56,171 nt of DNA, taken from Chiloscyllium plagiosum (taxonomy: Eukaryota). The stretch spans positions 57,802,042-57,858,212 of the forward strand of contig NC_057718.1 of assembly GCF_004010195.1 (NCBI RefSeq), given 5' to 3'. This document shows, piece after piece, positions 1,991-48,379 of this stretch; position 1 is the first letter of the stretch, and every line of letters begins with the position of its first letter. Under the pieces are notes generated by a model. That model saw only the letters and a list, made by a program, of their open reading frames with translations. It did no database searches and had not been told where the DNA came from. The translations under genes and the position numbers were made by a program.

Positions 1991-2524
1991 AGTTTCTTAC
2001 TGTTATTTTAATCTTATTTATTTCAAATGCTTCACACATGCAAACTCTATACTTTGAACTTTGACAATTGCTGAATTTTTATGAACTAACTTTGGGCTCT
2101 AATATCTTAATATCTTTGTTCTTTCCACTGCTCCTCCCAATCTGCTCTGTGTATTTTTTTCCCAAACACTGCACTGCTCCATCCTTTCCTGAATTCTTTC
2201 TCTACCTACATCCACTCCAAACCTCTTTGTAAAATAAGGCTGTATCTATTGCCCTGGTCATTTCATTCATCTGCTATTGGTTCCAGCCAGATTTAAGTGG
2301 AACCAATCCCAACAAAAGAGTCAGCCGTATGTTTAATCCTCTCAAGACTGGGCATCCATGAGGTGCAGTATGCCATCAACAATATTCAATTCTGGGCAGT
2401 TACTAGACCCCAGTCAGAACTAGAGAAGATATGGCACTTGCTGCAAGCCCACAAGGGAGCGTTATTATGAAACTGTGTGCTCTATGATAACTCAAGACTG
2501 AACAAGCCTTGAAACTGGTTGATG

Positions 2525-2597
2525 CTGGAAAAGCGCTGTGCTTTTCCAGCAACACATTTTCAGCTCTGATGTCCAGCAGCTGCAGTCCTCACTTTCT
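2525..2597 (+). mobile_element. Short Penelope-like element terminus with 18-bp TSD
   Basis: gcttttccagcaacacattttcagct matches 47925-47950; ccttgaaactggttgatg is duplicated at 2507-2524 and 2598-2615. Confidence 0.85.
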
Positions 2598-3169
2598 CCT
2601 TGAAACTGGTTGATGACTCACCAGTGCTCACATGACTCACTCCTTAAAGGAACAGTGTCCCAGTATAGTATATCCCAAATATAATACAAAACTAACAACT
2701 GCAAAATTGTCTTCAATTACAATCTCACGGCTTGGCATATCACCCGCTGTATCATTAGCAGAAATCAGGAGATCAACACTGCTTCAATGGAGAATGCAGG
2801 AGGGCATGTCAGGAGCAGCACTTATTATACCTAAAGATGAATCCTTAACCTTTTAGAACAATCACACAGGACTATTTGCATGCAGAATGTGAAATACGCA
2901 GCAAAGGAGTAACACAACGAATGGATCAGATTCGAGCTCTGCAGTACTGCCACATTCAGTCATAAATGGTAGTGAACAATTGAACCAAGAACAAGTGTAG
3001 GAGTCTCAATAAATAGCTTCATTTTCAACATCTCAGCACATGATTGACAATGCCATCAAATGGCTCTCACTCAGCAATAATCCACCAGCTGATGTTCAAT
3101 TTGTATTCCAGCAAATGCTGGCCCAGCCCACAACGCTCACACCTTTGTATAACTTTTTTAAAAAAAATC

Positions 3170-4945
3170 TATAAGACCATATGAAATAGAAGCAGAATTA
3201 GGCCATTAGGTCCATTTCTCCTTCACCATGAGATCATGGCTGATATGTTTCTCAACCCTATTCTCATGCCTTCTCTCCATAACCCTTGATTCCCTAACTA
3301 ATCAAGAAACAATCTCTCTCTGTCTTAAATACACTCAATGAAGTGGCCACCACTGCCTTCTGTGGAAATCAGTTACACAGTTACACCACACTTCAACTGA
3401 AGAAATTCCTCCTCATCTCAGTTCTAAAGGGTTGTTTCTTCACTTTAAAGCTGTACCCTGGGTCCTGCTCTCTCCTACAAGTGAAAACATCTTCTCCATG
3501 TCTACTCTATCCTGGCCTCTCAGTATTCTGTAAGTTTCAATCAGATCCTCCCTGACATTTCTAAATTCTATCAAGTACAGAGCTATAATCCTCAACTGTG
3601 TCTCATATGACAAGCCCTTCATCACAGGATCATTCTCCTCTGAATTCCCTCCCAGGGCAGCATTTCCTTCTTTAGAGATGGGGACAAAAACTGTTCACAA
3701 TATTGAATTGAATTTAATTGAATTTATTGTCACGTGTACCGAGGCACAGTGAAAAGCTTTGTCTTGCAAGCAATACAGGCAGATCACAGAGTTAATAACG
3801 TAGATAAGTAAATAATAGGTAAACACTGGCAAAAACCAAAACATAGGTATAGGCGAATGCTAGGAGTTTGTGAGTCCATTCAGTATTCTAACAACAGTAG
3901 GGTAGAAATTGTTTTGAAACCAGCTGGTGCGTGTGTTCAGGCTTCTGTACCTTCTCCCCGAAGGTAGAGGTTGTAGAAAAGCATTGCCAGGGTGGGATGG
4001 ATCATGGAGAATGCTGGCGGCCTTTACTTGACAGTGGGCCTGGTAGATGGATTCTATAGAAGGGGGGTTGGCCTTTGTGATTGCCCGAGCTGAGTTCAGC
4101 ACTCCAAATGCAGCTTGGCTGGGGCCTTATACAGTCTCACCAGTACATCTCCTCTCTTGTATTCTAGCCCTCTTGAAATTAATGCATTTGCCTTCCTAAC
4201 TGCCAGCTGAACCTGCATGTTAACATTAAGAGAATCCTGAACTAGAACTCCAAAGTCCCTTTGTGCTTCAGATGTCTGAAACCTTTCCCCATTTTGAAAA
4301 TAGTCTACGTCTGAACCTCACATTTGCCCATATTGCATTCCATTTGCCACTTCTTTGCACAGTCTCCTAGCCTATCCAAGTCCTTCTGCAGCTTTCTGAG
4401 CTCCTCAATACCATCTGTCCTTCCACTTATTTTTGTATCATCTACAACTTAACAACAATGTTCAGATCATTAATGTGTAACATGAATAGTTGTAGTTCCA
4501 ACACTAAGCCCTGTGGAACTCCACTAATCACCAACTGCCATCCATGAAAAAGACCTCTTTATTTCCACTCTTTGCATTCTGCCAGTCAGCCAATCCTCGA
4601 CTTATACCAGTTCCTGCCCTGAACAGTCTTATCTTAGCAATCTTGTTTGTGGCACCATGTCAATGACCTTCTGGAAATCTAGATAGATCACATCCACTGG
4701 GTCTCCTTTGTCTAACCTGCTCATTACCTGTTCAAAGAATCTGAACAAATTTGTTAGGCATGACCTCCTCCTGATGAAGCTGTGCTGACTCAGCCCTATC
4801 TTACCATGTACTTCCAAGTACTCTGCAATCCCGTTCTTCATAACTGACTCTAAAATCTTCCGAATCACCAAAGTCGGGCTAACTAGCCTATAGTCTCCTG
4901 TTTTCTGTGCCCCTCACTTCTTAACTAAGGGTGTTCATTAGCCAT
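3170..4945 (-). mobile_element. CR1-clade LINE, 3' part of ORF2 (RT) and 3' UTR, disrupted
   Basis: ORF 4629..4871 QHSFIRRRSCLTNLF...PVDVIYLDFQKVIDMVP (RT); ORF 3440..3625 REDLIETYRILRG. Confidence 0.9.
3704..4102 (-). mobile_element. Rex1/Babar-type LINE 3' end nested in the CR1
   Basis: ORF 3860..4102 DPSHPGNAFLQPLPSGRRYRSLNTRTSWFQNNFYPTVVRILN; (TTCAA)n-like tail at 3704-3722; host CR1 resumes on both sides. Confidence 0.8.
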
Positions 4946-5349
4946 GCAGTTCCTGAACATACTGCTGGTAGTTGTGACAATCCAAGATGATTTTTCTCTC
5001 TCTTTAGATGTTTAATTTGGTGAGGTCAGTTGTTATGTATATTTTCCCTCCATTATCCCATGCAATTAAAATCCTGAAATATTCAATAAATCACCATTGC
5101 TCAGTGATTCTGAACATTTTCATTCCTTTGCCACTGACTATTACAACACCCATTGGCCAACATACTGAAATAACAGACACTGCAAAAAAAAATTCAAAGC
5201 AACTTAATGATATTTCCAATACTATGTACTAAACTGAAATATTGACCCTTGTGTATTCCAAATGCTTATTTGTAAATAAAGAAATGTTATTAAAAAAAGA
5301 AAAATTAAAATGAATACAAAGTAAGACAAAAGAATACTTATAGGAATGA

Positions 5350-7080
5350 AGTCTCAATATGTTTCTGTGGTATGCCATTGGGATCTGTTGTTAGAGTTTG
5401 TTCTTGCTGAAGTGAAGAGCTTAACACTTGAAGCTAGACCCAGCAGCTGTGGTGGCTTCTGTGGATGAATAGTTGGGGCTTTCTTGCACAGATGGGCTCA
5501 GCAGGACATCAGATTTTGGGAGAGAATGAAGATTCCTGGTTTCTAATTCTACAGGCCTGGCATTGTAAGCTGCCTAGTTGCTTTACAGCAGTGCACTGTT
5601 TCAAAATGTCTCTTTCTGTCTCTCTGATCAGGGGAGGCATTTCTTCCAGATTCTTCAATGTGGCATTTCTTTCTGTATCAGAAGCCCAGTTGCCTTTCTG
5701 GGTATTCTTAGATAGCGAGCTAAAGTAGTTGCTCTTACCACAGGACTTAGGCAAACAAAACTGACTAATGTACCATTTAATGCTCCGGTGCTTTGAAAAC
5801 AAAATCCGTTTTTCAACTGTGGTTCTTAACATCCTAATATCGAATTTACGTTCTCACAATGGGGTGTACCTGAAACTTCAATATCTGTTGGACAAGACTG
5901 CAGTGAAACATAATCATATTGAGGTCTATCAAGTGGAGACTCAGTTTGAAATGCACAATTCTGACAGGGCCTGGGCCCATTTTGAAACAGCAAAGGATAT
6001 TTATTCCCCAAGAAAGAGGAAAAATGGGAGACATTCAACAGTTCTTTTAAAATTTACTGGATCATAACAACACAGTTGTGACACAGGTCAGTACAGGGAA
6101 GTTTTTCTTTTGAAACACATCCAATCCCGAATCTTTGATCACATGCACTGTGTTGCTTACCAAGATGACTGTGTGGAGTTTGCACGTTCTCCCCGTGTCT
6201 GCGTGGGTTTCCTCCTGGTGCTCCGGTTTCCTCCCACAGTTCAAAGATGTGCAGGTCAGGTGAATTAGCCATGCTAAATTGCCCGTAGTGTTAGATATAG
6301 GGGTAAATGTAGGGGTATGGGTGGGTTGCGCTTTGGCGGGTCGGTGTGGACTTGTTGGGCCGAAGGGCCTGTTTCCACACTGTAATGGAATCTAAAAAAA
6401 AAATCTAATGACACTGTCAATACCCAATCTATCACATTTTGTGATTCAGGGCTGTCATCTCTGTTTCCACATCGGCAGAAGTGACTGCGATGTTTTGAAG
6501 GCAATGTGTAATTGCAGATGAGAGAAAGGAATAGGCCTTACCTCTTCACTGTAGAGATGGTGAATTAGGAGATATCTCTGAGACAGAGTCACTGAAGTTG
6601 AGGCAACCCGCACTAATTACCACACTTCAAACTCAACCCCTGTGAACATTATCATCCCTTAACACTTGCAAAACAACATTGGCAGTTTCAAAAAAAGATA
6701 TGCGATTTGTCCAAGCAGTGTTTCTGCTGTAGCATCATTTACCCACCCCAGGCAGTATCCACTACTGACATGTGGTAAAGATTGGGGAAAGCAACCACTT
6801 TGCTGGTGTTTGTCATTCATCAGACAACACAACTGCAATGACCGATCCCTCATGCCACATACATATATCACAGCGAAAGGGTGAGGGATTGAGTGACCCC
6901 TGTGCTCTCTTTTGGACACAGCAAGTAGCCACAATTTACAAATACCACTGTTGACTGTTGGATATAGATGATGTCATTGTTACAAGAGCATTTATCAAAG
7001 TTAACCTTCATGGCTGCCCTGTCCTCTTCAAACCAGGGAAACCAAAAATGTTCCCTTCCAACAGTGACAAACCGCTGAAG
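5350..7080 (-). mobile_element. Ancient hAT-superfamily transposase fossil (DUF4371/ZMYM1-like), frameshifted
   Basis: Ordered degenerate motifs on the minus strand: LV*RGQGSHEG (about 7040-7005), HPFAVI..GMRDRS, DATAETLLGQI..LKLPMLFCKC (ORF 6659..6934), EATTAAGSSF near 5460-5430. Confidence 0.55.
6166..6403 (+). mobile_element. 5'-truncated HE1-type SINE inserted in the hAT fossil
   Basis: tgtgtggagtttgcacgttctccccgtgtctgcgtgggtttcc...gggccgaagggcctgtttccacactgta followed by an A-rich tail. Confidence 0.9.
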
Positions 7081-8419
7081 CTTCTTGGAATATTTGCAAC
7101 TCCAATCTCATTCAAAGAATGAATACTATGTACTGTGTCATTCCTGGACAATGTAACACATTTATCAGTATCCATGGGCAATAGATCTGACCACATTGAA
7201 AACTTATTCAATAAAAATGCGATAATTGTTTAATATGAACAGTCAATAAAGTAGAAATATCAAAGCTTATTCCTATACAAACCCCCAAATCAAACATGTG
7301 AAAAGAAAATACAAAATCTGTGACATTTCAGGAAACCAGAAACAAGCACAGATTTCTCTGCAGAGTTTGGTTTTCTGAAAATAAAACACATTGCTCAATG
7401 GATTATTCTTGAATGTAAAAGGATAAACATTTAAGGTGCTGTGGAGTTGTTGCTCTGGTAACAGCCCTGCACATGCTTCCAAATAAATTCCTCAAGGACT
7501 TCCCTGAAGGTTTGAATGAAATTTGCTGCAGCCAGCACAGGTTCATTGACCAAGAGTTTTCAACTTCTCAAAAAATTGCTTGCCCTTCCTGACCACACCA
7601 TCTTGACGTTTTTTAAGCAAGCCCATTATTGGATCAGTTATAGTGTTTATATTTTGTGCAAACTTGCGGTAAGAGTCAGACATTCCCCCAGAAATCTCAC
7701 TATTTCTCAAGTAGTTTAAGAGCATGAAATTCCAATAATGTTTGTACTTTTGGTAGTCTTCTGCTTGCCTTAGGATTTTCCCAAAATAGATTACTTGCAC
7801 CTTTGCAAATTTCCCTTTGGGCAAGTTAATCATCAAGTTAACCAATTGTAGTTTCCCAAACAAGGCTTTCAGTTGTTCTAAGGGATCCTCCCAAGTGGAT
7901 CACTGTATAGCACTACACCATTGAGGTAAATTGCACAATTTGGAACACTGGCTATCACTCGATTGTTTAGTCTTTGGAAAGTTGCTGCTACATTTTGCTT
8001 TTAGCCCAAATGACATCATTCAGTATTGGAAAAGATCATCTGTTGTGACAAGGCTGATATTCCTTTACCTCTGGATGTTAAAAGGACATTCCAATCCCTT
8101 TTTAACAAATCTATTTTGGTATGAAATCTGGCACTGCCAACCCTATCAATTCAGTCTTTCAACTGATGAATAGACAGGTGTCTGTCTTTGAGACTGCATT
8201 GACTTTTCTGTTGTCAGTGCAGAATCTGGCTAATCCATAAAGTTTAGGTATTAATACATCTCAGGAACTCCAGTGTCTTTAACTGGGTTCATTTCTGTAG
8301 CTTTCCAACCTGTATTAGATTTCTGCTTTTACCAAAGCTTCTTTCTCTGGAATGCCAATTTATAGGAGAGGATTCTCCTACATCCATATCATATATTGTA
8401 AAAATCGTACACTCAAATA

Positions 8420-8650
8420 AAAACAAAATACCACGGATGCTGGAAAACTGGAATAAAAGGAGAAAGTGCTGGAGAAACTCAGATACCTGGCAGCATCTGT
8501 GTAGAGAGAAACAGAATTAACATTTTGAGTGTGATATGACTCTTTGTCAAAACTTTAAAAAGTTAAATCAGACTTGCAACATTAACTCTATTTTACTGTC
8601 TCCACAGATGCTGCTGGCTTTGCTGAGTCTCTCAGCACTTTCTGCTTTTA
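8420..8650. mobile_element. Fold-back pair of old PLE termini
   Basis: agaaagtgctggagaaactcag...ggcagcatctgtg (8461-8501) versus ccacagatgctgc...ctgagtctctcagcactttct (8602-8643) in inverted orientation. Confidence 0.6.
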
Positions 8651-8845
8651 GGTTATGGTGGCCAGATCATCGAATATATTTAAAACTCAGCTGGATAGAT
8701 TCTTTAATATTGAAAGGATCAAGGGTTACAGGGAGGAAGTAGAAGAATAGAGTTGAGAAACTTATCAGGCATGATTGAATGGTGGAGTAGATTCAATGGG
8801 CTGAATGGCCTAGTTTCTGCTCCTTTGTTTTATGGTCTTATGGTC
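8651..8845 (+). mobile_element. CR1 3' end fragment
   Basis: ggatcaagggttacagggag...atgggctgaatggcctagtttctgctcct...tatggtcttatggtc tail. Confidence 0.75.
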
Positions 8846-9637
8846 TTTCTTTTTGCAAACGGTACATACCCTGATTTGGCCAGATAGAATCCTTTAAATT
8901 TTGGGAGTAACATTGTTATGTCATTTTGTTCTTTTATGGTTAAATATGAAAGCCTGATCTATTATCTTCCTAATAGTTCAATGTTAGCTAACCAGACAGT
9001 AATGGTTTGATATGGGAATGGTTTAGGCCTCTTATATCATCCTCACTATCTTCTTCACCCTCAATTGTGCTTATTGCCTGCACTTGCTTATCCTCCTCCT
9101 GACAGTTATTATCTTTGAAGATATTAATGTAGCACAGCAAATTCTGGGGGTATCAATTAGATACTGACCAACTCTTTAGAGTTCCCTACATGGACCATTG
9201 AATCAAGTTTTGAATAGTTCACTCTGTGAAGGAAGTAATCTTAACACTTCACTCTCTGACTGAAATGCTTCGGATTTGGCCTTATGCTTGGCTTTTTGTT
9301 TCATGGTTGTTTCTAATGCTCCAAAGAGTTTTTAAGTTACTCCGCAGGCTCTATTGAGCTGTTCCCCATGCACAAATATATAGTCTAATGTGGATGATTC
9401 ATCCTTCATATGAAAAACATTTCCTTAATTACTGTCAAAGGTCCCCTACCTCATTGCCATAAACTTATTCCAACGGATTAAAACCAGAGAACTCATTGGG
9501 TGAATTCCAGGCGACAATCAAAGAACATTCCAGTACTTTGTTACAACCGTGGAGGTATTCATCACCATGTGCCCTGATTGTCACTTTGAAGATTTGGTGA
9601 AACTGTCCTCAAGACCCTTGTGTCTGTGAGTGATACT

Positions 9638-10689: not shown

Positions 10690-13476
10690 CGTGTTGAACA
10701 AATTGCTGTGTTGTAAATTGAAACAGTTATGATACGATAGGGCAGCTCAGTGACATGGAATGGCTGTCCTATGGAATGTGTGGAGTCATGGACACTTCTG
10801 GTGAACTTATCGAACCCACCAGCAGGAAGTGTCACCGTTACATAAGCTTGAGCTCTGGATTTCAGAGCTTGAACAGCAACTCGAGTCAACAAAGTGCATC
10901 TGCGAGGCAGAGGCCCACATGAATAGAATGGTGTGCACACTGCAAACTAGGGACAAACAGATAGACAGGGAATGTATGACCACCAAGCAATTCATGGGAA
11001 AAAGCAGGTAGGGAAGGAGTGGCTGCTCACTGACTGGCTTTCTGTTCTGCACACTGGAGAATGTGATGAATGCTTGGAGGAATGCCACAAAACCCAAGCC
11101 CTTGGCATCACAGAGTGATCCAGCAGCGCAGGAGTGAAGAAGAGATGAGTCTTTAGGTTGGGGAACACAAAGATATTTCTTGGGCTGTCAACATGACTCC
11201 AGAATGTTATGCTGCCCCCTGTGGGGGGACAAGGATGTCACAAAATTGTTACAGGACACACTTTTGGCTGAAGGCAAACAGGTAGAGACCATGGTCAATG
11301 ACATCAGTAGGAAGTTAAAAATTACACAACACCAGATTATAGTCCGACAGACCTGACAAAGGAGCAGCGCTCCAAAAGCTTGTACTTCCAAATAAACCTG
11401 TTGGACTATAACTTGGAGCTGTGTAATTTTTAACTCTGTCCTTCCCAGTCCAAAATCGGCGCCTACACATCATTGGTAGGAAGAGGAATGTTGTCCTGAA
11501 ATTAGAAACGAGGGAGTTAGGTAGAAAATTAGCAAGCAGAACGTCAAAAGTAGCAATTTCAAAATTACTCCAAGGCCACGTGCAAGTGAATACAGAAATT
11601 GAAAGATAAGACAGATGACAGCATGGCTGAAAATTTAGTGCAACAAGGAGGGCTATAGAGTCCTTGGATTGGCACCTGGATGGCTGGTGGGGAGGTTAGT
11701 CACACTAACTCAGCAGCAGTGTGGGAACCAGGAGATACTATTAGGTTGCATGGAGAGGCTGAAAACACTGGAATAGAGATATTAGTCAGTGGAGTCAGCG
11801 TAAGGGAGAAAGAAATGAATTCTAAATGAGCATTACACTGCCTGTATGTGAATGGACAGAGTTTAATTAATAGAATTGAGGAGTTACAGGCACAGGTTGC
11901 CGTGTTGAGATTATGATGTGGTGATAATGGAGACATGGCTCAAGGAAGGGCAGGCCTGTGTTTTAAATATTCCTGGCCCCAGGATGTTCAGAAAAGATAG
12001 GATAGGTAAAGAAAAAGTAAGGAGGGGTGGTGTTTTTGATTAAGGACAATCTTGCAACACTGGAGAAAATGGATGTTTCAGAGTTCAAGGACAGAATAAA
12101 TTTGTAGGAATAAGAAAGATACAGTGACATTGTTTGGTGTAATCTAATGACCACCACGAAGTGGGAAGAATAAACAGCATTGAAGAATAAACAGAATAAA
12201 CAGAGGAATAAACAGCATTGAAATTCAGAAAGGTGCAAACATCGTAGACTGGTTATAATGGGAGACTTTAATTACTCAAATATAGATCGGGATAATTGCA
12301 GTGGGGGATAAGTGTTCTAGATTGCATCCAGGAGAATTTACAACAGTATTATGTGTCCAGTCCAACAAGAAAAGGAGACATTGCCAGACCTGGTTCTTAG
12401 AAATGATGTGGGCCAAATCAATCAAGTGAAAGTGCAAGAACATTTGGGGAAAGTGATCATTGTATCATAAGGTGATAGTAGAAAACAACATTGGTCAATC
12501 CAGAGAAAGAATAATCCGCTGACAGAAAGCTGGCCTCAGTGTAGCAAGAACAAAGTTGAGTCAGATAGACTGGAAGTGAAGATTGGTGGGGGATAAAAAA
12601 TAATAGTTGAATATATGTTATATTCAAAGAGGTTTGTAGTGGAGATCCCCAGCTGATATTATTATCTAAGTCCTGGCATGTGGGAATCTGGGGGAGGCAG
12701 TTTCAAAGTCTGTGAATGATATGAAACTTGGATAATTATAAACAATGAGCAGGATAATATAAAACTTCAAAACCAAATTGCCAAGTTTATAGATAGCCAA
12801 TGTGGTTCAGTGCAGAAAAGTTTCAAGTGATGTACTTTGGTCCAAAGAACATGGAAAGACACTTTAAAATAAAGGGGCTATTCTGAAAGGAGTGCAGGAG
12901 CATAGAAACCTGGGTGTATATGTGCATGGGTCATTAAAGGTGGCAAGGGCTGTGGAAAAAAACAAAGTATTCTAGACTTCATAACCAGGAGTTTAACTTT
13001 CAAGAGCAGGGAGATTATGTTAAAGTTATATCAGATATTGGTTAGACCTCAGCTGGAATACTGTGTACAGTTCTGGATGCCACATTTTAGGAAGGATATA
13101 ATTGCATTGGAGCGAGTACACTAGAGGTTGACAAGACTAGTTCCAGGGATGAGAAACATCAGTTATGAGGTTAGATTGGAAAGGTTGGCACTGTTTATCT
13201 TGGAGAGACGAAGACTGAGGAGAGATTTCAGAGACATTTTTATAATTACGAAGGGTCTGTACAGTATAGATTGGGAGAAAATGTCTCTACTCATAAAAGA
13301 ATCAAGAACCTGAGGTGCAGTTTTAAATGTTTAGCAAATGTGAGGTGAGAAAAGCTTTTTCACACAGAGAGCTGTTTGGATTTAGAATGCACAGCCTAGG
13401 TGTGTGGTGATGACAAGCTCATTTGAGGCGTTCAAGGGGTTTTTGGTGATTATTTAAATAGAAACAATTGGCAGAA
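10690..13476 (+). mobile_element. Old, long CR1 LINE (ORF1 relic, endonuclease, internal deletion, RT C-terminus)
   Basis: LHKLELWISELEQQLES coiled coil (ORF 10829); gagacatggct (ETWL) near 11930; atgggagactttaat (MGDFN) near 12258; ORF 13128 TRLVPGMRNISYEVRLERLALF. Confidence 0.8.
11315..11470 (+). mobile_element. PLE terminus (second family) with inverted arm, inserted in CR1 ORF1
   Basis: 11312-11350 is the imperfect reverse complement of 11398-11435; decayed hammerhead ctgacaaaggagcagcgctccaaaagctt; gtaggaag duplicated at 11307-11314 and 11476-11483. Confidence 0.75.
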
Positions 13477-16029: not shown

Positions 16030-18580
16030 TGAACATGCGAATTAAAAGCAGGGGACAACCCTTGAGTTCCAGAAGCTTGCTCTGCCATCCAGGCTGACCT
16101 GACTATGGATTCAGGATTGGTTAAAAAAGACTGCCTTGTCTCTATCTGACTTGACAGACCTTTTGTTTTTTATTGAAAAGAAAAATGTTTTTGGGTTTTT
16201 TTTTACAAATTTACAACATTAATATAAAATAGTGTAACCACTTTACAGTATAATAACAGCATCGATATAAATAAAGAAAACAAACTACTAATCTACTCAA
16301 CAAACTACCAAAACACAAAGCAAGATATAAGAAAAAAAGAACTCTGTATTAAAAAACTACAATACAGTACGTAACTTACAAAAAAAGAAGATAAATAAAT
16401 AAATAAGCATTCAAAATAAAATTCTATCAATTCATAACAAGAGCTGTATTTATATGGGATTCTTCCTCCCAGGGGCCCCAAAACCAACAAACGTCATCCT
16501 CTCGGCTAAACAAGGGCCCTAGATAGTATGGCCGATACATCTGCATTGGTGTAGCTCAAGAAGGACTGCCATGTTCTATAAACAATTCCGTTTTTTAGTG
16601 CACCATGTTCGTAAGGAAGTCCAGGGGAAAATGTTCCATAGCTATCCAAGCAAATTCGAAAGTCCTGGAGGATTTTTCTGATACCCAGCTTGCTAAAATG
16701 TTTTTCCTCGCGCAAAAGGAAAGGATAGTACCTAGCTTCTTCCCGTATGCATGTAGAGAAGGAAGAATTGGAAGGCCCAAGAGGAGAGACACCAGGTCTA
16801 ACCCAATCTCCGTTCCCAAAATCTTTGCCAAGGCATTCGCTACACTGTGCCAGTATCTATGGATCTTATGGCATGTCCACAGACAATGAGTGAGGGTACC
16901 AACTTCTATATTACATTTAGGGCACACTGGGGACACTCCTGCCTTAAACTTTGCAAGCCGCTCTGGTGCTATATGGACCCTATGAAGTATCTTCAATTGA
17001 ATAACTTGAGTCCTATTACAGATACACATCTTCTTTGCATTTTCCCAGACATCCTCCCTCATCTCTAAGGAGATTTCCATCCCTCATTCTTGAGTCCAGG
17101 TTTTATATAACCGTTCCATGTCCTTCGATACCTTATTACTGATCGAGTGATAGAGTACTGACTGAGGGTGTGCCCATCTTTTTTTGAATGAAGGTCCTTG
17201 CTGGGCAACCTGAACTTCTGACGTAACTGTTCGAAGGACATCATGACCTCCCCATCTAATCGATCTTCCAAACAGGAGATACCTCTGGACACCAAACTTT
17301 AAATCCAGCATCTATCGAACCTGGCTGAAATCCCAACATTCCCACTATCAGAGTAAAGGGGGAGTTTTTTTGTAGATTATCCTCACCCTGTCGAATCATC
17401 CTCCAAGCTTTGATTGTGTTTAGAACAATCGGGCTTTTACAATGATCCATGACAGTTCTCATCTTACCCATAAATAATAAATTGGTGAGGGGGCATTTTG
17501 CTTGGGAAACCTTGGATATCCAACCAAATTGATTGCGGAACACGAGAGGCCCAATCAGCCGCATATGATAGCAGCAAGCTTAGTTGGTATTTCCTAAAAT
17601 CCGAGAAATCTAGACCTCCCCTTTCTTGTGGGAGCTGCAATTTATCTAATTTAATAAGGGGCCATCTATGATTCCAAACAAAGGAACTGAGCAAACCATA
17701 AAGCTTACACAATGCCTGTCTCAGCAACATCAAAGGAAGGATTCTCATAGGGTATAATAGGTGAGGGAGAACATTCATCTTGACCAGAGCTATTCTTCCT
17801 AACCAGGATATCGGGAGATCTTCCCAGTGTTGAAGGTCCTGCCTTATTTTCTCTAATGGATGCGTATAGTTAGCTTTACATAGCTGACCAAATACCGGGG
17901 TGACCTTTTGTTTTTAAACAGTGACCTCACCCCTACCCTGGTTCTCGATTCTTCCACAAGAAGAAATATCCTTTCCATATCAATCCTGTCAAAACACTTC
18001 AGGGTCTTCTATGCTTTAGGGTATATATGCTTCACCTGTTCAATCGTTCCTCATAAGTCAACCTGCTCATTCCAGGTATATATCTGGTAAAGCTTTTCAG
18101 AACTGTATCCAATGCAATTATATCTTCATAACTGAGGATACCAACTCTGAACACAATACTCTAGACGTGGTCTCACCCATGATCTGTGCAACTGAAGCAG
18201 AACTTCCACATATTACCTTGTTCCCCTCTTAATAAATTATCACATTTTATCAGCTTTCTTATATGCTGTATCTACATTCTAACTTTTCGATAGTCATGTG
18301 CCAGAACATGTAAATCCCTCTACACCTGAGCTCTGCAATTTCTCACCCTTTAGATGATATGCTTCTTGTTATTTTTAATGTCAAAAACGGCAATTTCGCA
18401 TTTTCCTACATTATACTCCATTTGCTACATCTTTGCCTACTCACTGTCTATATCCTTTTGCACCCTCCTTTTGTCTCTTCACACTTATTTTCCAATCGAT
18501 CTTTGTGTCATCAGCAAATTTCTCAATCAAACCTTTTCATAAATTGTAAAAAGTTGAGTCTCCAGCATTGAAACCTGTAC
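16030..18580 (-). mobile_element. Old CR1 fragment split by the L1 insertion (16030-16156 and 17916-18580)
   Basis: CR1-like text either side of the L1: tttttaaacagtgacc...ctggttctcgattc; cacaatactctagacgtggtctcacc; tgtgtcatcagcaaat (FADDT). Confidence 0.6.
16171..17901 (-). mobile_element. 5'-truncated L1-clade LINE with 14-bp TSD
   Basis: ORFs 17464..17778 (MNVLP..LQLPQERGGLDF) and 16595..17080 (CPKC..GTLTHCLWTC zinc knuckle); A-rich tail; gaccttttgttttt at 16157-16170 and 17902-17915. Confidence 0.92.
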
Positions 18581-28338: not shown

Positions 28339-28684
28339 CCAGTGTTGTGCTGAGATTACAGAACAGCCAGTCAAGCTGATTGATTGACAGCTCTTGGAGG
28401 TGGGATATGCTTCTTAGTGAGGACTACAAGAGCTACCCCAGCCAATTAACACTCTCCCAAGCACAAATTAGCTGAGCAGCTGCTGCAATCAATAGGATTG
28501 CATTCTCCATTGACTATGGGGAGGCAGATCACAAACGTCATGACCTGAATAATCCTATTCATTCTGATTTGTAGTGATTGTAATAATGTCACTAAATGGA
28601 CCTCATAGAATATGAATTCTCTGATTGGGGCTGTTAACCTGGCCCAATCAGGGAGTCCTGGCTCATAGATAGAAGCAAAAGAGT

Positions 28685-28870
28685 TGCCTGCCCCTCTTCC
28701 GCGGTTACGTTAGGTCCCGGGAGAGGTGGGCGCCGCAGGGATTGGAGTCTTTCACTGTGTCTCACACCTGCACACACACAACATGGGTGCTGGGGAAAAA
28801 ATAAGCACTACCGCACTTAGGTGGTAGTGTGGGGGTTAAATTTAAAAAAAAAGAAAAAAGAAAAAATATA
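28685..28870 (+). mobile_element. Internally deleted mini-copy of the Tx1-like LINE 3' end
   Basis: Three blocks match 29286-29322, 29373-29403 and 29574-29639; A-rich tail. Confidence 0.85.
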
Positions 28871-28919
28871 TATAGCTAGGAGATAAAAAAAACAAAAAAA
28901 AAATATATAAACAGGAGAT

Positions 28920-29665
28920 TGCTCTCTACGCGGGAGTCCCCCCCCTTTCTCTCGGGGATCTGGGGTGGAGGGTGCTGCATGCAGCAGTCTCCTGCAACCG
29001 CAGATTGCGGTGGTTCACGGACTCCCAGCTCAACTGCTTGTTCTGTGGCGCTGTGGAGTCCGTGGACCATGTATATATTGGGTGTGGGTGTTTGCACTCC
29101 CTTTTTGATTTTCTGAAAAACCTCCTCCTCTGCTTTTGGTTGCACTTCAGTCCCACGCTCCTGATCCCGGTACGGAGGAAGGAGGGCAGGTCTGAAGACC
29201 TCCTCGTGGGTCTGCTCTGGGCCTGGCCAAACTGGCCATCAACAGGTCGAGGCAGCGGGCCGTGGAGGGGGTCGTTAGGGCCGACTGCCTGCCCCTCTTC
29301 CGCGGTTACGTTAGGGCCCGGGTGTCCTTGGAGAAGGAGCATGCAGTGTCGACCAACACCCTGGAGTTGTTCAGGGAGAGGTGGGCGCCGCAGGGATTGG
29401 AGTGCATTATTTCCCCCTCCAACTCTATTTTGATTTAGTCCCTACCCTCCCCTTCACTGTTTTGATCACACAGCACTGCCCTTTGATGTGAAGGGCAGTG
29501 TTTGTCACTGGCCACCCGGGTGTTTTCCTATCTTCCTGGTGGTGGAATTTGAATAAAGATTCGTGCACTTTGTGTCTTTCACTGTGTCTCACACGTATAC
29601 ACACACACCATTGTTGCTGGGGAAAAAATAAGCACTACCCAGAGAAAAAAGAAAGAAGAAAAAAG
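28920..29665 (+). mobile_element. 5'-truncated Tx1-clade LINE (ORF2 zinc-finger C-terminus and 3' UTR)
   Basis: LGDLGWRVLHAAVSCN...CLFCGAVESVDHVYIGC (ORF 28972); GC- and CpG-rich; aataaa at 29553; A-rich tail at 29641-29664. Confidence 0.85.
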
Positions 29666-29696
29666 GAAACAGAAGAGTCAGAGGTTCTGTTCTCCT

Positions 29697-31588
29697 TAAG
29701 TAGGTTCAGCAGGGGTTTGTGGACCATTATTATGACAAACTTACAACTGTAAAGGTATTGGAACTTCCTGACTCTGAATATGACCACCAAATCTTCTTTC
29801 TCCGTCTGCACATAATTTTGCTCTGCAGTAGCCATTGTCCTGGACGCGTACTCTATTGGCTGTTCCTCTCCATTGGGCTATCAATTAGCTAATACTACCC
29901 CAATGCTGCATGGGGAGGTGTGTCAATATCAGATCTCATTTAGGATGATAGTGTGTGAACACCTTAGAGGTTGACAGCTGCTTCTTCACATCCCTGAAAG
30001 CTATGGCTTGGCTACTCAACCATTTCTCAGGCTAATCCTTTTTAAGAGTTAATGCAAAGGTGACAGGATGGAGACCAGCTTATGTATGAATTTTCCTTAT
30101 TAATTTACCAGCTCAAGGAAAGACCTAAAGTTCTAGTGCAGACGTGAGATTCAGGGTAATTTGATTGCGCTCACTTTATCTTCCAGCAGGTGTAACCCGT
30201 TGTTGACTCTGTCGCACAAGTAGGTCACTTAGGGTGCCTGAAACACACATTTTTCCCTTCTAATGCTTACAAGTGTCTGGGAGAATCAGCTAAGGACTAT
30301 GTCAAAGTTCTCTAAGTGCTCCTTATTGGTCTTCTTTGTTATTAGCACATCATCTAGATAAATGATGACCGGGGGTAGACTTTGTACAATGTTCTCTGTT
30401 GTCCACTGAAAAATTTCACAAGCTGATGATACCCCAAATGGCGCTCATTTTTATTGGTACAAACTCTTAGGGGTATTGATTGTAGCATATTTCTGGTAAT
30501 CCTCAAATAACTGCATGCCTCTTTGCTAAGGGCAGCACCCCTGCTAGCTTTGCTTTTAAACAAGGGATTGGGTATTTATCTAGCTGCAAAAAGCACTTTG
30601 CTGTCTGTTTAAAACACCCACAAAAGTGAACCAAACCATCAGGCTTCACAATTGATATAACTGGTGTTGCCCATTCTGCAAACTGGATTGGGTTGATAAT
30701 TCCTTCCCTTTTTAGGTTTCTGATTTCTGTCTCTACTTTTTCCCATAAGGTGAATGACACTGGGCAGACCTTGCAAAATCATGAAATTGCTTCCTGCAAT
30801 TCAATATGCAAGATGGTCAAGGTTCTCTTGATAGTCCCGAGACCTTCCTGAAAACTTCCAGGTATTTAATTAGGACTTCATTCAGGCAGTCATTCTCTAA
30901 CTGAAAAACACGGAGCCAATCTAGGTGAATCTTTCTCAACCAATTTTGCCTCATCAAGCCTGTGTCGAGCCTTTTCCTACAATCAGTGGTAACTGAACCA
31001 GCTGCTTCTCATAAAAGACCAGAAGCAAAGGCGTACCCTTCATTTGTAAAGCTTCCCTGGTATAGGTTCTCAGTTTGGCTGAGGTCTTACGCAAACTGCA
31101 CGGTTGGAGTCCAGAGATAATTTTTTAAAAGACCGCTTCTGTGATCACTAAAATGGCTGTGAAGGTATCGACCTCCATTAGAACTGGGTGACCATTTAAC
31201 CAGATGTTTATTTTGATTGGTCCTAATTTGGATGTTGCTAGGCAATTTAACTGATCCAAACCAGACGTAGGTGGACTTTCCAGGATGTGCACTCTCTTCG
31301 ATACTGGCCTATGAATTCTGGTACTCAATTTAGACCTTGTGGGATTCTTTTGCTGCCTCGAGTCCGCATATCAGCAGCAACTACAATGGCTTGCTGGGCT
31401 GGATCCTGAAGAAAGTTTTAACCCTTTGGCCAAGGCTTGGCTTTGTTTTGGGATCTTGATGTGGGCTGACTTCGAGTCCCTCTGTTCAGGATATGCCCTG
31501 ACTGATGCTAAGTAACTGCCTTCATTCAAATGGTGTTTCCCAAGTTGAGTTAGACTGGTGAGGGTGTCCACTTGCATTGAAGTACCCT
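29697..31588 (-). mobile_element. Gypsy internal region (gag end, protease, RT, RNase H), disrupted
   Basis: LNGHPVLMEVDTFTA (protease, ORF 31125); EWATPVISIVKPDG..DKYPIP (RT, ORF 30503); AEQNYVQTEKEDLVVIF..HKPL (RNase H, ORF 29635). Confidence 0.92.
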
Positions 31589-32076
31589 GCAAACTCTCAA
31601 ATGGTGCGGGAGCAGAACATGCCCAGGCCCTTGATTACTTTCTGACTGTTACGGAACCCTTGCATGCTCCCTTGCCATCAAGCATTGAAGAAACTTTAGA
31701 ATCTGAGATGAACACAGCAGATGTCGCTGCCTCAACGCCTTTGCTGCCAGAAGAGGAGAATCAATTTCTTTCGAGATGGTCCCGATGCAAGAGGCAAGCT
31801 ATTGTGTGTTACGCGCAACCCATATCAGTGGCAGAGTTACAAAAGCAAAAAAACCAGCCTATGTCCTCGTTCTCTGGGGTGGAGCGATATAGTGATTGTT
31901 ACAAAGTTAGTCTGATTAAGAAAAAAGCCCCTATCAGGGAGCCATGGCTGACAGAGAATAACAGGAGTGTCAGAGGTTCTGTTCATTCTAAGCACTGGAT
32001 CAGCGTCAAGGACTCTGCACAGGTTAATAAAGGGTGACTTGGTGATGAGGTTATTGGCCTCTGTGGAGTTATTTCA
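31589..32076 (+). mobile_element. Gypsy pol C-terminal tail, polypurine tract and right LTR (31888-32076)
   Basis: LSRWSRCKRQ resembles the LRRSxR tail; ggggtggagcga precedes tatagtgattgt; aataaa at 32026; ends ttattTCA. Confidence 0.7.
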
Positions 32077-32144
32077 TGGCTATTTGCCTGGATCTGAAAA
32101 TATTCAAATAACAAGTGGATAATGAAACTTCACTCATTGTTTTT

Positions 32145-32262
32145 CCTGACTTCACCTGACGAAGGAGCAGCACTCCGAAGGCTTGTGATTTCAAATAAAC
32201 CGTTTGGATTATAACCTTACTTCTGACTTTGTCCACCCCAGTCCAACACCGGCACTTCAATG
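32145..32262 (+). mobile_element. PLE terminus (second family)
   Basis: cacctgacgaaggagcagcactccgaaggcttgtgatttcaaataaacc...ccacccagtccaacaccggc-like tail; homologous to 11351-11470 and 36236-36350. Confidence 0.75.
32152..32188 (+). ncRNA. Minimal hammerhead ribozyme-like motif (GAAA mutated to GAAG)
   Basis: UCAC-CUGACGA-A-GGAG cagca CUCC-GAAG-GCUU-GUGA; helix I (UCAC/GUGA) and helix II (GGAG/CUCC) are intact. Confidence 0.6.
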
Positions 32263-35221: not shown

Positions 35222-35555
35222 CTTAGAGTAATAGAGTCATTGAGATGTACAGCATGGAAACAGACCCCTCGGTCCAACCTATCCATGCCGACAGATATTC
35301 CAACCCAATCTAGTCCCACCTGCCAGCACCTGGTCCATATCCCTCCAAACCCTTCNNNNNNNNNNNNNNNNNNNNNNNNNNNNNNNNNNNNNNNNNNNNN
35401 NNNNNNNNNNNNNNNNNNNNNNNNNNNNNNNNNNNNNNNNNNNNNNNNNNNNNNNNNNNNNNNNNNNNNNNNNGCAACATGACCTCCCAACTCCTGTACT
35501 CAATACTCTGACCAATAAAGGAAAGCATACCAAATGCCTTCTTCACTATCCTATC
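35222..35555 (-). mobile_element. Young CR1 (HER1-like) 3' end spanning an assembly gap (N 35356-35473)
   Basis: KKAFGMLSFIGQSIEYRSWEVML before the gap and KGLEGYGPGAGRWD after; tail homologous to 47451-47580. Confidence 0.9.
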
Positions 35556-36235: not shown

Positions 36236-36350
36236 TGATGTGGAGGTTGGACTGAGAGGATAAAGTCAGAAGTCACATGACACCAGATGAAAGTCTAACA
36301 AGTTTATTTGAAATCACAACCTTTCAGAGCGCGTTTCCTTCGTCACTTCA
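36236..36350 (-). mobile_element. PLE terminus (second family), decayed
   Basis: Reverse complement gtgacgaaggaaacgcgctctgaaaggttgtgatttcaaataaact matches the 32156 family. Confidence 0.65.
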
Positions 36351-38156
36351 CTTGTATGAATATCTGGTTAACACAGTCTTGAAAATATTCAATAATCTAC
36401 CCTCCACTGCTCTCTTCCTAGGCTATTGATTGAGGGTGGAATCAAACCTGGGTTCCTGGTGTTGTGAGGCAGCAATGCTATTGATTAGTTTCATTCTATT
36501 AAAGTTATAGTATTAATAACTAAATTGTTAATTTTTGTTATAAACCTGATGTCTGATATATTTTATTCTTAAAGTCTAGCTAGGAACCATTGGGGCAATT
36601 TTGAGTGTCATTGAATGTTTTCCATTTATTATAGTATGAATTTGGAGATAGGGAGGCTGATTGATTTGGCTTGCTGTTCCCATGTCATGACATTGTGGAC
36701 TCCTAACGGTCCTCAGTGAAATGGAAATTCTTAACAAATAGATTTATTTAATCAGCTTTATAGATATGGAACATCAACCAGGCAACAGTCTCCTGGAAAT
36801 GCAATGAAATTGTAATTATGTTGAGTGAATACAACATGTTGGAGGTACACACTCTCCTGACAGTTCACTTTAATTGTGTCTTGCTGTTGGCATTTTGTTA
36901 TACATGTAAAAGGACACCCAGATCTCTCTTTACGATAGCATTTTGCAATTTTTCTCCATTTAAATAACATTCTGTTTTTCCTTTCTTCTCTTTATTTGTA
37001 TTCTTTTAACTTGTGGTACTTGGATGGGTTGGGCTTGATAGTAGCCACTAAACAGAGGAAAAAAGTTCCATGGGAAGGCAAGATCTCAATGGTGAATGAG
37101 CAATGGGCAATTGCATCACTGTCCAGCCAGCTAGAACACAGCAGAGTTCTGTACCCAGTTAAAGAAGCTAAAGGCATCTATGTTGCATAGATGTAATTGG
37201 AAAAGAGATAGAAGTATTATCATTCCCATTTCCCTATTCCATCAAGGAAACACAAACTGAAAAAAAAACTGATTTTCTTTTAACAATTTTTGCTCACCTT
37301 TAAGCGCTTAACCTATTTTAATGACAGGAATTCAAAGGAATTAAGAAGTAAATGCAGATATTTCCATTGTATATAGCATGTTTAAATGTCAAAACAATGT
37401 TTAGGAATCATCAACCTTCCATCAAAATTTCAAATAGTTTACATTTATTTATTTAACATGTGTGAAGTTAACAATGTTGAGTTATGCACTGAAGTCCTGG
37501 GAAGGGCCATTCAAGTTGGTTATGAGTTAGTTGGGGAAGGACTGGTGTTGAGGGGGGGTGGTGATGGGGGAACTGAGGACGGATGGAGACAAAGAGATAT
37601 GTAATTGGTGAATGATCAAGATTCCTGGTACATTCCTGTTCTTTCTACTCCATACGACATAACTTCCTGAAATTGGCAGCAGTAGGGAGCACTTTAGGTT
37701 CTCTGGCAGGGTAGACCTGACACATTCACTGCTCATCACAGGCTAAATTATTGCTGGGGTCCTTTAATAGGTTTCAGGTCTCTAACATGTAGATTTAAAG
37801 GATTTAATATCTGTTGTAAAATAAGGTCCACATAAATGTAGACCAAATCTTGCTCAGGTCAGTGACTGATATCAAGTAGAGACAGTTGGGTCGGTAAATT
37901 GTTTTGAGTCCATTTAATGAGCAAACAATGTCAACATTTGATCATTTCTGCCCCAGTAAATTCTTTACCAATTGCTTAACATTCTGACCATATGGTGAAG
38001 TACATTTTGTAAATTTATGGACTAGATATCTGATGCAGCTGTGAAATATTGTGACACGATAATTTTTCCGATATGTTTCTGAATCAATGAAATACTTATG
38101 AAGTGTGGTCATTGTCATTAAGTAGACAAATGCAACAGTTAATTTGTGCAAACAAG

Positions 38157-39088
38157 CAGGGTCTGGAAGAACACAACAAGCAAGGCAGCATCAGGAGGTG
38201 GAGATGTCAACGTTTCTGGGCATAACCCTCCTTCAGGAGGGGTTGGGGTAAGGGAGCCACAGATAAAGAGAGGGAATGGAGCGGTTATGGGTGGGAAGAT
38301 GGGCGGACTGGTGAGGTAGTGATAGGTGAACACAGGTAGAGGGCACAGACTTGTTTGTTGATGGGAGGAATGAACCTGGTTGGTAGCTGGAAGGAAGGCT
38401 CGTTCAGAGGAATGGACTGGAGGAGGCTGCCTCTCCTCCATCGTAGTTTACTGAATACAGTGTTCCTGATGTGGCCTTTTCTACATTGGTGAAATCAAAT
38501 GTAAACTAAGGGAATGTTTCACCGAGCATCTCAGCTGTGCCTGTAAGCACCAACCTGATCTCCTGGTCATAGCCCATATCAATTCCCCATCCCACTCCCT
38601 CTCCGACATGTCCATCCTTGGCCTCCTCCATTTCCACTGCGAATCTGACCACAAATTGGAGGAACACCATCTCATCTTCTGCCTGGACAGCCTGCAGCCT
38701 ATAGGACTCAACATTGAGTTCTCCACTTTAAAAAACATCCCTTCCCATCCCCCACTCCCTTTCCAGCCCCTCTCCCTCCCTTCCCTTCCTCTGACAAACC
38801 TTTCCAGCTACCAAACGGATTCATTCCTCTTATTGACCAACCTGGGGCTGTGCTCTCTACCTGTGTTCACCTATCATTACCATACTATTCCGCCCCTCTC
38901 CCCATCCATAAACCTTCCCCCCAATTTTTATCTGCATCTCCCTCTACCTCTACCCTCAGTCCTGAAGAAGAGTTATACCCGAAACGTTGAACTTCTTCAC
39001 CTCCTGATACTGCCTGGCTTTCTGTGTTCTTCCAGCCTCCTGTTGTCTACTTTGGATTCCAGCGTCTGCAATTCTTTTTATCTCTAAA
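38157..39088 (+). mobile_element. Penelope-like element: inverted terminus (38157-38425) plus GIY-YIG endonuclease relic and terminus (38428-39088)
   Basis: One frame from 38443: VVY*IQCS*CGLFYIGEIKCKLRECFTEHL...HINSPSH..DMSILGL..KLEEHHLIFCLDSLQPIGLN; 18-bp TSD (16/18) at 38139-38156 and 39089-39106. Confidence 0.92.
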
Positions 39089-45939: not shown

Positions 45940-47190
45940 ACATAGAAGGTATGAGCAGGAGGAGGCCATTCAGCCCCTCGAGCCGGCTCCATCATTCATT
46001 ATGATCTCACCTTCCCCTCACACCCTTTGATCCCTTTAGCTGCAAGAGTTATACTGACCTCCTTTGTAAAAACACACAATGTTATGGCCTCAACCAATTT
46101 CTGTGGTAATGAATTCCAGAGGCTCACCACTCTCCACATTATGTTGCAACTGCCATGCATTTGCCCATTCACTTAGCCTGTCCAAATCATACTGAATCAT
46201 CTCTGCATTCTCCATCATATCTCACCCTCCATTAACCCTTGCGTCATCTGCAAATTTTGAGATAACACATTTAGTTCCATCATTTAAATCATTAACATAT
46301 ATATTGTGGGGTCCTAGTACCAATCCCTGCAGTAACCCACTAGTCATTGCCTGCCATTCAGAAACAGACTCATTTATTTTGTTAGCAGACAGGAAACAAC
46401 TTTTCAACCCATCTCAATACATTACCCCCAAACCTGTGTGCTTTAATTTTATAACCCAATATCTTATATGGGGCTTTGTTAAAAATCTTCTGGAAGCCCA
46501 AATAAACTGCATCCACTGGTTTCCCATTATCAACTCTACTGATTACTTCTCCGGAGAATTCCAGTAGTTTTATCAAGCATGATTTTCCTTTTGTAAGTCC
46601 ATGCTGACTGTATTTTATTCTACTGCTGTTTTCTAAGTGCTTTGCTTAAAAGACAAAAGTGAAATGTGAATTTAGTTCATCAGCCATTTCTTCATTCCCA
46701 ATTACAAATTCCCCCATTTCTGACTATAAGGGACCTACAATAGTGTTCACCAAACTTTTTCTCTTGATATATCTATAGAAGCCTTTACAGTCAGTTCTTA
46801 CGTTCCTTTTTCCAATGCTATGGCCTCAACCACCTTCACCACTCTCCACATTATACTGCAACTGCCATGCATTTGCCCATTCACTTAGCCTGTCGAAATC
46901 GCACTGAATCATCTCTGCATCCTCCATCACAGCTCACCTTCCATTAAGCCTTGCGTCATCTGCAAAGTTTGAGATAATACATTTAGTTCCATCATCTAAA
47001 TCATTAACATATATATTGTGGGGTCCTAGTACCAATCCCTGCAGCACAGGTCACTTGTTTTTTCTCTTTACAAGCTTATTGATGCTTTTATATAGTCAGT
47101 TCATATGTTCCTTGCAAGCTTGTTCTTCTATTGTTTTCCTTTTCTTAATCAATCTTTTTATCCTCATTTGCTGACTTCTAAAGTGTTTCA
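45940..47190 (-). mobile_element. Rearranged CR1 with internal duplication
   Basis: ORFs 46222 (YVNDLNDGTKCVISKFADDA) and 46382 (PVDAVYLGFQKIFNKAP); 46077-46332 is repeated at 46813-47044. Confidence 0.88.
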
Positions 47191-47769: not shown

Positions 47770-48143
47770 AAAGTGAGGACTGCAGATGCTGGAGATCAGA
47801 GCTGAAAATGTGTTGCTGGAAAAGCGCAGCAGGTCAGGCAGCATCCAAGGAACAGGAGAATCAGGAAGGGCTTATGCCTGAAACGTCGATTCTCCTGTTC
47901 CTTGGATGCTGCCTGACCTGCTGCGCTTTTCCAGCAACACATTTTCAGCTTCCCCCTTGTGTATCAAGGATCTATACATAGCTTCATGCAGTCACATATA
48001 AAGCTGCAGCATCCAAGGAACAGGAGAATCGACGTTTCGGGCATAAGCCCTTCCTGAAGAAGGGCTTATGCCCAAAACGTCGATTCTCCTGTTCCTTGAA
48101 TGCTGCCTGAACTGCTGCGCTTTTCTAGCTACACATTTTCAGT
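47770..48143. mobile_element. Two consecutive fold-back PLE termini with duplicated flank
   Basis: Perfect 63-bp inverted repeat 47800-47862/47888-47950; 48-bp inverted repeat 48006-48053/48059-48106; 57-bp direct repeat 47950-48006/48144-48200. Confidence 0.92.
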
Positions 48144-48379
48144 TTCCCCCTTGTGTATCAAGGATCTATACACAGCTTCATGCAGTCACATATAAAGCTG
48201 GCCATCAGGATGAGGCCGTCATGGCCTTGATCAAAACCTGGTTGAGGGGTGATGACATAATTTCCCTTAATAAAGTATCCCCCCAGGTGATATCACCTAT
48301 CATTTGCCCAGCCCAGCCCAGCCTATTATCAAAGTGTACTATGGCCTGACTCCCAGGAGCTAGTGTTTTTCCCTTAATT

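Follow-up and report, generated by a model that had tools for sequence, protein, structure and literature searches.

The closest described systems are found in the Tx1 clade of LINEs. Tx1L of Xenopus laevis inserts in the DNA transposon Tx1D through a sequence-specific endonuclease (PMC1950540, PMC4494074), whose nicks are almost confined to the target (PMC1950540). Tx1 families preferring Mariner, Harbinger and 'specific groups of LTR retrotransposons' have also been reported (PMC4494074, Kojima 2015), with preferences ranging from 13% to 90% by family and with tandem insertions that sandwich a TSD. In the same paper a Tx1 family was called target-specific when more than 20% of its flanks were of one target type, independent truncation points were used as a test against hitchhiking, and transcription from the flanking target was raised as a possibility (PMC4494074).

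The crocodilian Tx1-clade LINEs Tx1-8_Crp and Tx1-4_AMi resemble the family described here in their preference for LTR retrotransposons; they belong to a different host lineage, and the main text of the paper names no LTR family, position or motif for them (PMC4494074). Tx1-8_Crp is given there as LTR-preferring in section 15 and as preferring Mariner position 830 in section 16, one of which may be a slip. Tx1-Mar and SINEU-3, in Mariner-N4_AMi, likewise occupy a fixed position in a fixed direction in an old, abundant transposon and form TSD-sandwiched tandems, but their target is a DNA transposon and their TSD is another sequence (PMC4494074). Tx1L, the closest named protein to the shark family (42-47% over the C-terminal piece), also targets a specific sequence in another transposon; its target is the DNA transposon Tx1D, in contrast to the Gypsy LTR found here, and the endonuclease of the shark family is absent from the window. 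The locus is a new example of a site choice already described for the Tx1 group in frogs and crocodilians, and the targeting principle is not new: the initial annotation had proposed a transposon that targets another transposon, for which published precedent exists in the Tx1 clade (PMC4494074, PMC1950540). No paper on a Tx1 family of sharks that occupies the TATA site of an LTR was found in the literature searched, to which subscription journals, Repbase and the supplement of PMC4494074 did not belong.

The window, i.e. the whole stretch of DNA analysed, consists of 56,171 nucleotides of the Chiloscyllium plagiosum genome. Features of the part with the stacked insertions are listed in Table 1. 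Public data were mapped on positions 28400-32200 at 80% likeness and comprised four of 24 listed runs, namely two raw-read runs (X21 and X22) and two contig sets (X1 and X5); the raw-read runs and one contig set came from one organism (A), the other contig set from a second organism (B). Taken together, the locus and these data indicate that an abundant Tx1 LINE family probably prefers one TATA-like site of an older Gypsy LTR family, where it inserts in the sense direction.

Table 1 Features of the split LTR, the units inserted in it and the surrounding Gypsy element (positions in the window)
Feature	Position	Strand	Remarks
U3-like 5' part of target LTR	28570-28671	+	starts with TG; runs to the TATA-like site; promoter labels putative, from sequence
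Inverted pair CTGATTGG / CCAATCAG in U3-like part of LTR	28621-28628, 28644-28651	+	
Target motif copy 1, the most strongly decayed; TSD on the 5' side of the stack	28669-28684	+	empty-site reads continue from 28671
Mini copy of Tx1, truncated at the 5' end, lacking 54 and 172 nt of the long copy at two internal points	28685-28837	+	
Decayed poly(A) tail of mini copy	28838-28866	+	family reads become A after the GGGGGTT end
Target motif copy 2	28867-28882	+	3 mismatches to copy 3 (at 28870)
Bare A-tract: tail-only insertion or local duplication of tail and motif	28883-28903	+	37-nt spacing, 88%
Target motif copy 3, ATATAAACAGGAG	28905-28917	+	identical to empty-site reading
Long Tx1 copy, C-terminal ~170 codons of ORF2, CCHC zinc-knuckle region	28921-29438	+	tblastn to Tx1L
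Tx1 3' UTR, AATAAA at 29552	29439-29640	+	
Decayed poly(A) tail of long copy	29641-29666	+	
Target motif copy 4 and LTR resuming	29667-29692	+	ends after 26 nt at rearrangement
Inverted, decayed Gypsy interior, many stops and frameshifts	29693-31590	-	RT_RNaseH E 2e-13, RVT_1 E 5e-5; right border approximate
C-terminal tail of Gypsy pol, in LTR orientation	31590-31875	+	25 relatives
Purine-rich tract before right LTR, PPT-like (putative label)	31876-31887	+	
Uninterrupted right (3') LTR, empty target site 31955-31976, AATAAA at 32026	31888-32076	+	alignment; contigs leaving at 32076

The stack of LINE copies inside the LTR was confirmed when the sequence was re-read. The left LTR (28570-29692) is interrupted at the motif by a mini copy, a bare A-tract and a longer Tx1 copy, all on the plus strand, and the five motif copies are found where they had been annotated, at 28671-28684, 28872-28882, 28905-28917, 29667-29684 and, in the right LTR, 31957-31976. 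A decayed motif resembling ATATAAACAGGAG flanks every unit of the stack, and the four copies in the stack differ from one another. The left piece (28570-28683) and the right LTR (31888-31967) are identical in 60 of 80 aligned columns (75%), and the sequence that resumes behind the stack (29667-29692) is identical to 31959-31984 of the right LTR in 23 of 26 columns. Local alignment of the 5' piece of the left LTR gave a score of 38; 2000 shuffles scored 16.9 on average and never more than 34.

The motif copies on their own are weak evidence; it is the split LTR and the reads that carry the case. With up to 3 mismatches allowed, the 13-mer motif matches at 34 places within the window (16 plus-strand, 18 minus-strand), and of the four copies in the stack those at 28671 and 29663 fall outside this threshold; the 17-mer motif has 2 matches in the window with 0.23 expected, a number reached in 4 of 100 shuffles. 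The left LTR begins with TG, the right LTR begins with TA and finishes with CA, and 362 contigs of X1 and 375 of X5 exit at 32076 into dissimilar flanks. The target motif sits behind two CCAAT-like boxes and approximately 70 nt ahead of AATAAA, a position that fits a putative TATA box of the LTR. To the right of this LTR, at 32153-32240, lies a very abundant short repeat (depth ~2,100), of which there are more copies at 11351 and 36247-36345.

Given the RT and RNase H matches in Pfam, the TG...CA ends and the order of parts in a relative, P0038, the target is a Gypsy-type LTR retrotransposon. What the pair of LTRs encloses is no ordinary Gypsy element: the stretch of approximately 29693-31590 codes on the minus strand, whereas the pol tail, the purine tract and the LTRs lie on the plus strand. 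All ten of the pol-tail relatives that were examined, out of 25, are whale-shark gene models. One of them, P0038, matches the RNase H region on the minus strand and the pol tail on the plus strand, and runs from RNase H into the tail preceding the LTR. The right LTR thus stands after the pol end and the purine tract, as a 3' LTR should, and most of the interior is inverted. The left LTR has lost its 3' half, and the integrase core is absent from the element in the window. Remnants of integrase, which we take from motifs to be such, are present in P0018 and P0038, and the gag end and protease-like labels within 29693-31590 are likewise our assumption from motifs, with no Pfam match for either. 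Pfam searches of the plus-strand pol tail and its relatives gave 3 weak matches, under the cut-off, among 23 proteins. The two LTRs may stem from one insertion; the letters flanking the pair, TGATT and TGGCT, agree in 3 of 5 positions, the LTRs are 75% alike and the interior is inverted.

One X1 contig spans 29584-30019 with 0 differences, which confirms the assembly in this region, and a contig of organism B, which differs at 12 letters and has 16 gap letters, spans 29659-30005 and includes only 8 letters of the tail, so that the rearranged left junction is common to organism B. Among the contig pieces listed, none spans 28570-29584.

That the LINE is of Tx1 type, as the initial annotation had suggested, agrees with the comparison of its ORF2. 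The piece in the window has 47% and 42% identity with the ORF2 of Xenopus Tx1L (P0007; E 8e-28, tblastn; 45% in BLASTP) and is 58-67% identical to four unnamed proteins and one sturgeon protein. The longest relative, P0001, has 41% identity with Tx1L over 617 residues (481 bits) and only 29-31 bits with human L1 ORF2p. Because the similarity of ORF2 is to Tx1L over L1, the LINE is filed as a putative member of the Tx1 clade, the placement being one by similarity scores with a single named Tx1 reference and a window copy that is without an RT domain. Features of the Tx1 type are present, namely a C-terminal CCHC knuckle, a poly(A) tail, 5' truncation and TSD-like motifs; the zf-RVT match in the long copy (E 0.0012) is under the Pfam cut-off, and the CxxC...H...C pattern is visible in the translation. 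The ORF2 of the long copy has one frameshift, near 29216, and ends with a stop at 29436-29438. Neither Rfam families nor tRNAs were detected in the window, and an snRNA or tRNA target is accordingly unsupported.

A decayed 3' part of another LINE lies on the minus strand at approximately 16200-17900, with a zf-RVT match of E 0.012 and a T-rich 3' UTR; judged by its motifs it is presumably L1-like. It was considered as a second copy of the family and rejected, as it had no match in self-BLAST and no tblastn match with Tx1L. Outside the shark data, no match to the Tx1 3' end was obtained in DNA scans of contigs from metagenomes, viruses and prokaryotes. In protein-based scans, 0 of 22 candidate stretches were confirmed in viral contigs and 3 of 204 in metagenomes (L001-L003). 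These three were rejected as loci of the family and attributed to chance, having 61-71% GC, no A-tails and E values of 1e-4 to 2e-3 against P0001.

Two or three successive insertions had been proposed for the stack. In favour of this, the mini copy has a 5' junction of its own and retains a 3' end that is absent from the long copy; 578 reads of X21 and 534 of X22 continue from 29639 with the letters of 28813-28837. The family homology of one X5 contig starts at 28921, the first position of the long copy, and three additional letters (28918-28920) lie between this copy and motif copy 3. The number of insertions is less firm, as two minority letters are common to the mini and the long copy and the A-tract unit is similar to the one beside it. 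There may have been one insertion here, with the mini copy and/or the A-tract unit arising by local tandem duplication and deletion, a course of events that would be compatible with targeting elsewhere and that we consider possible although not probable. The mini copy corresponds to three separate parts of the long copy in collinear order, with 7 differences in 133 nt, and its deletions join at GGG and GT microhomologies; splicing was rejected as the source of these deletions, since the joins carry the microhomologies and give no clean GT-AG fit. The two copies have in common the minority letter at 29397, from which 4,133 of 4,356 X21 reads and 3,744 of 3,989 X22 reads differ, and that at 29315, from which 2,327 of 3,174 X21 reads differ, so that the shared letters are present in about 5% and about 27% of reads, respectively. 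Such sharing would equally fit one source subfamily, and at 29612 the majority letter is found in the mini copy, whereas the long copy has one from which 882 of 926 plus-mate X21 reads differ. The close alignment of 28846-28882 with 28883-28917 is also as expected of a local duplication, but the four motif copies are not identical. For the bare A-tract unit itself, slip duplication and tail-only insertion have near even odds.

In the reads of the family, tails start at many points past the AATAAA at 29552, i.e. at 29563, 29576, 29585, 29593, 29604, 28800 and 28837. The scatter of these A-rich positions downstream of the signal suggests variable polyadenylation.

Both partners are abundant. Read depth was 0.86 and 0 in the unique flank, ~2,500 in the left LTR and ~4,000 at 28795 in the Tx1 3' end, and reached ~5,900 in the 3' UTR region at 29416-29542 (X21). 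Towards the Tx1 3' end the depth in X21 climbs through 1,430, 1,880, 2,260, 3,840 and 5,910, as expected from 5' truncation. For an assumed genome of 3.0-4.5 Gb, these depths correspond to 3,800-6,000 LTRs like the left LTR and ~6,000-9,400 Tx1 3' ends. Within 29289-29542 the depth leaps from ~2,260 to 5,900 and most reads differ from the window at 29315, 29342, 29345 and 29397; a large short subfamily or a SINE-like derivative may share the Tx1 3' end there.

The left LTR is exited at 28671 by 559 X21 reads, most of which continue into the motif and the remaining LTR, and an X1 contig links 28671 to 29667 with one letter in between, which together demonstrate that the empty site is real. The joint of the Tx1 3' end with the LTR motif, from 28800 to 31960, differs from the window's own layout and was present in all four runs, among the best 15 of 2,632 joints, with 6 reads from 6 starts in X21, 8 reads from 6 starts in X22, 4 contigs in X1 and 3 contigs in X5. 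Among the 12 listed of 800 rows with intervening letters, 3 were empty LTRs, 1 was internal and 8 had a Tx1 end; of these last, 5 carried the motif, 2 lacked it and 1 was ambiguous. The 5' half of the LTR and the motif were followed by a Tx1 start at 29316 (X1) or 28762 (X5), and a Tx1 tail and the motif by a start at 29413 (X1) or 29477 (X5; two rows, one point). Contigs bearing the motif had depths of 32-49, compared with 15-26 for single-copy pieces, which identifies the motif-bearing junctions as low-copy loci. A listed junction needs both sides inside the window, and unrelated flanks are invisible to it, so that these counts measure recurrence and not proportion; a further 9,288 loose ends stand outside the listing of joints. 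The reading of the initial annotation, in which the LINE enters the LTR at a single site and in a single orientation and the target is regenerated as a TSD-like motif, is supported, and the same junction is present at other loci and in two organisms.

Together with the window (28921 and the equivalent of 29286), the two starts in X1 and the two in X5 give six distinct 5' truncation points behind one motif. These, and the recurring motif junctions, argue against chance and against hitchhiking, in which a single early chimera of LTR and Tx1 would have been multiplied by the Gypsy element. The abundance of both LTR and Tx1 and the occurrence of the 28800 to 31960 joint in all runs would suit such a chimera, but several different 3' ends are found beside the motif, and the LTR looks older than the LINE, with a CpG observed/expected ratio of 0.0-0.12 in the LTRs versus 0.48-0.59 in the Tx1 copies. 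Because the truncation points are independent, hitchhiking is refuted by the test which Kojima used, and we regard it as scarcely probable.

How strongly the site is preferred depends on how the joints are counted. The raw share of the observed depth at the site was 0.0015-0.0021, compared with 1.4e-5 of copies under a uniform insertion model and 0.0026 under a loose preference for TATAAA. Calibration used the frequency with which reads from empty LTRs show up as joints, with an assumed read geometry and with listed rows only; it gave a share at the site of 0.14-0.16 (~15%) for one 3'-end class, a value that is uncertain several-fold.

The similarity of the raw share to the TATAAA-only prediction would allow that there is no targeting at all, and that an L1-like, loose AT-rich preference, a huge copy number and an abundant LTR led to occasional insertions; the motif is indeed AT-rich and its copies are decayed. 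However, under the loose model a genome should contain 0.03 LTR sites that were hit twice, yet stacks were found three times (in the window and in contigs of X1 and X5), orientation and position are both fixed, and the calibrated share is ~60 times above the TATAAA-only prediction. Absence of targeting is thus very unlikely.

The initial annotation had gone further and proposed a family specific for the TATA-like region of this LTR. The preference itself held up, in that it recurs at the site; exclusivity was less well supported, as the share is roughly 15% and other spacers occur, and the preference of the family for the LTR site is strong but probably not exclusive. The Tx1 3' ends outnumber the LTR copies and most LTR reads follow the empty site, which means that many copies of the family probably sit outside the LTR site. 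Both observations speak against strict specificity, under which nearly all copies would lie at the site, in this LTR family, in diverged subfamilies of it or in earlier stacks, as does the absence of the motif from 2 of the 5 Tx1-Tx1 rows listed, which are also the deeper ones (95 and 210). Conversely, 5 of the 8 listed rows with a Tx1 end carry the motif, the calibrated share includes only the last unit of each stack, one 3'-end class and LTRs at least 80% alike (those less than 80% alike are missed), and there is a precedent in SINEU-3, with 313 of 347 copies in its target (PMC4494074). On balance, strict specificity seems rather unlikely.

The two tandem Tx1 joints without the motif (29563 to 29479 and 29593 to 28769, both in X1) have A-rich spacers unlike the LTR motif, and their depths are those given above. 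They possibly represent a second target or an amplified variant.

The preferred reading remains a recurrent preference for the LTR site, and target-primed reverse transcription with a sequence-reading APE endonuclease is, by analogy with Tx1L, a likely mechanism for it. The APE-type endonuclease of ORF2 would nick the bottom strand where the motif is rich in AT, and the T-rich 3' end released there would serve as primer for reverse transcription, with the poly(A) tail as template. A second nick, perhaps 10-15 nt further, would produce a TSD of about ATATAAACAGGAG, the nick positions and the TSD length being predicted, and 5' truncation would be common during insertion. In the putative order of events, each insertion would restore the target on both sides, so that later copies could stack head to tail.

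A bolder reading, which we consider unlikely, is that the LINE is a promoter parasite or a TBP-guided LINE, with the pol II core promoter of a different retrotransposon as its target. Sense insertion with a TSD would place the CCAAT boxes and the TATA box of the LTR before the 5' end of the LINE; a full-length copy could then be transcribed from the LTR promoter, which would at the same time be severed from the Gypsy element. The site might in that case be found via bound TBP/TFIID and not by sequence read-out of the endonuclease alone. If promoter borrowing were true, one retrotransposon would take over and silence another.

For Tx1-clade endonucleases, which are of interest as natural sequence-specific integrases, the preference for the LTR site means a further chosen target, defined and 13 nt long, from the genome of a cartilaginous fish. 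The family has thousands of copies, and its stacks preserve the order in which units were inserted, which makes it suited to testing how target choice changes.

Elsewhere in the window, an assembly gap of 118 N is present at 35356-35473, outside the LTR/Tx1 stack. A long inverted repeat (38152-39046; 77% over ~280 nt) surrounds an open frame of 205 codons, which has no Pfam match and the start of which we take to resemble a Penelope-type GIY-YIG end. Two recent local direct repeats occur at 46124-47044 and 47865-48200; they are 209 and 142 nt long, respectively, and both show 94% identity.
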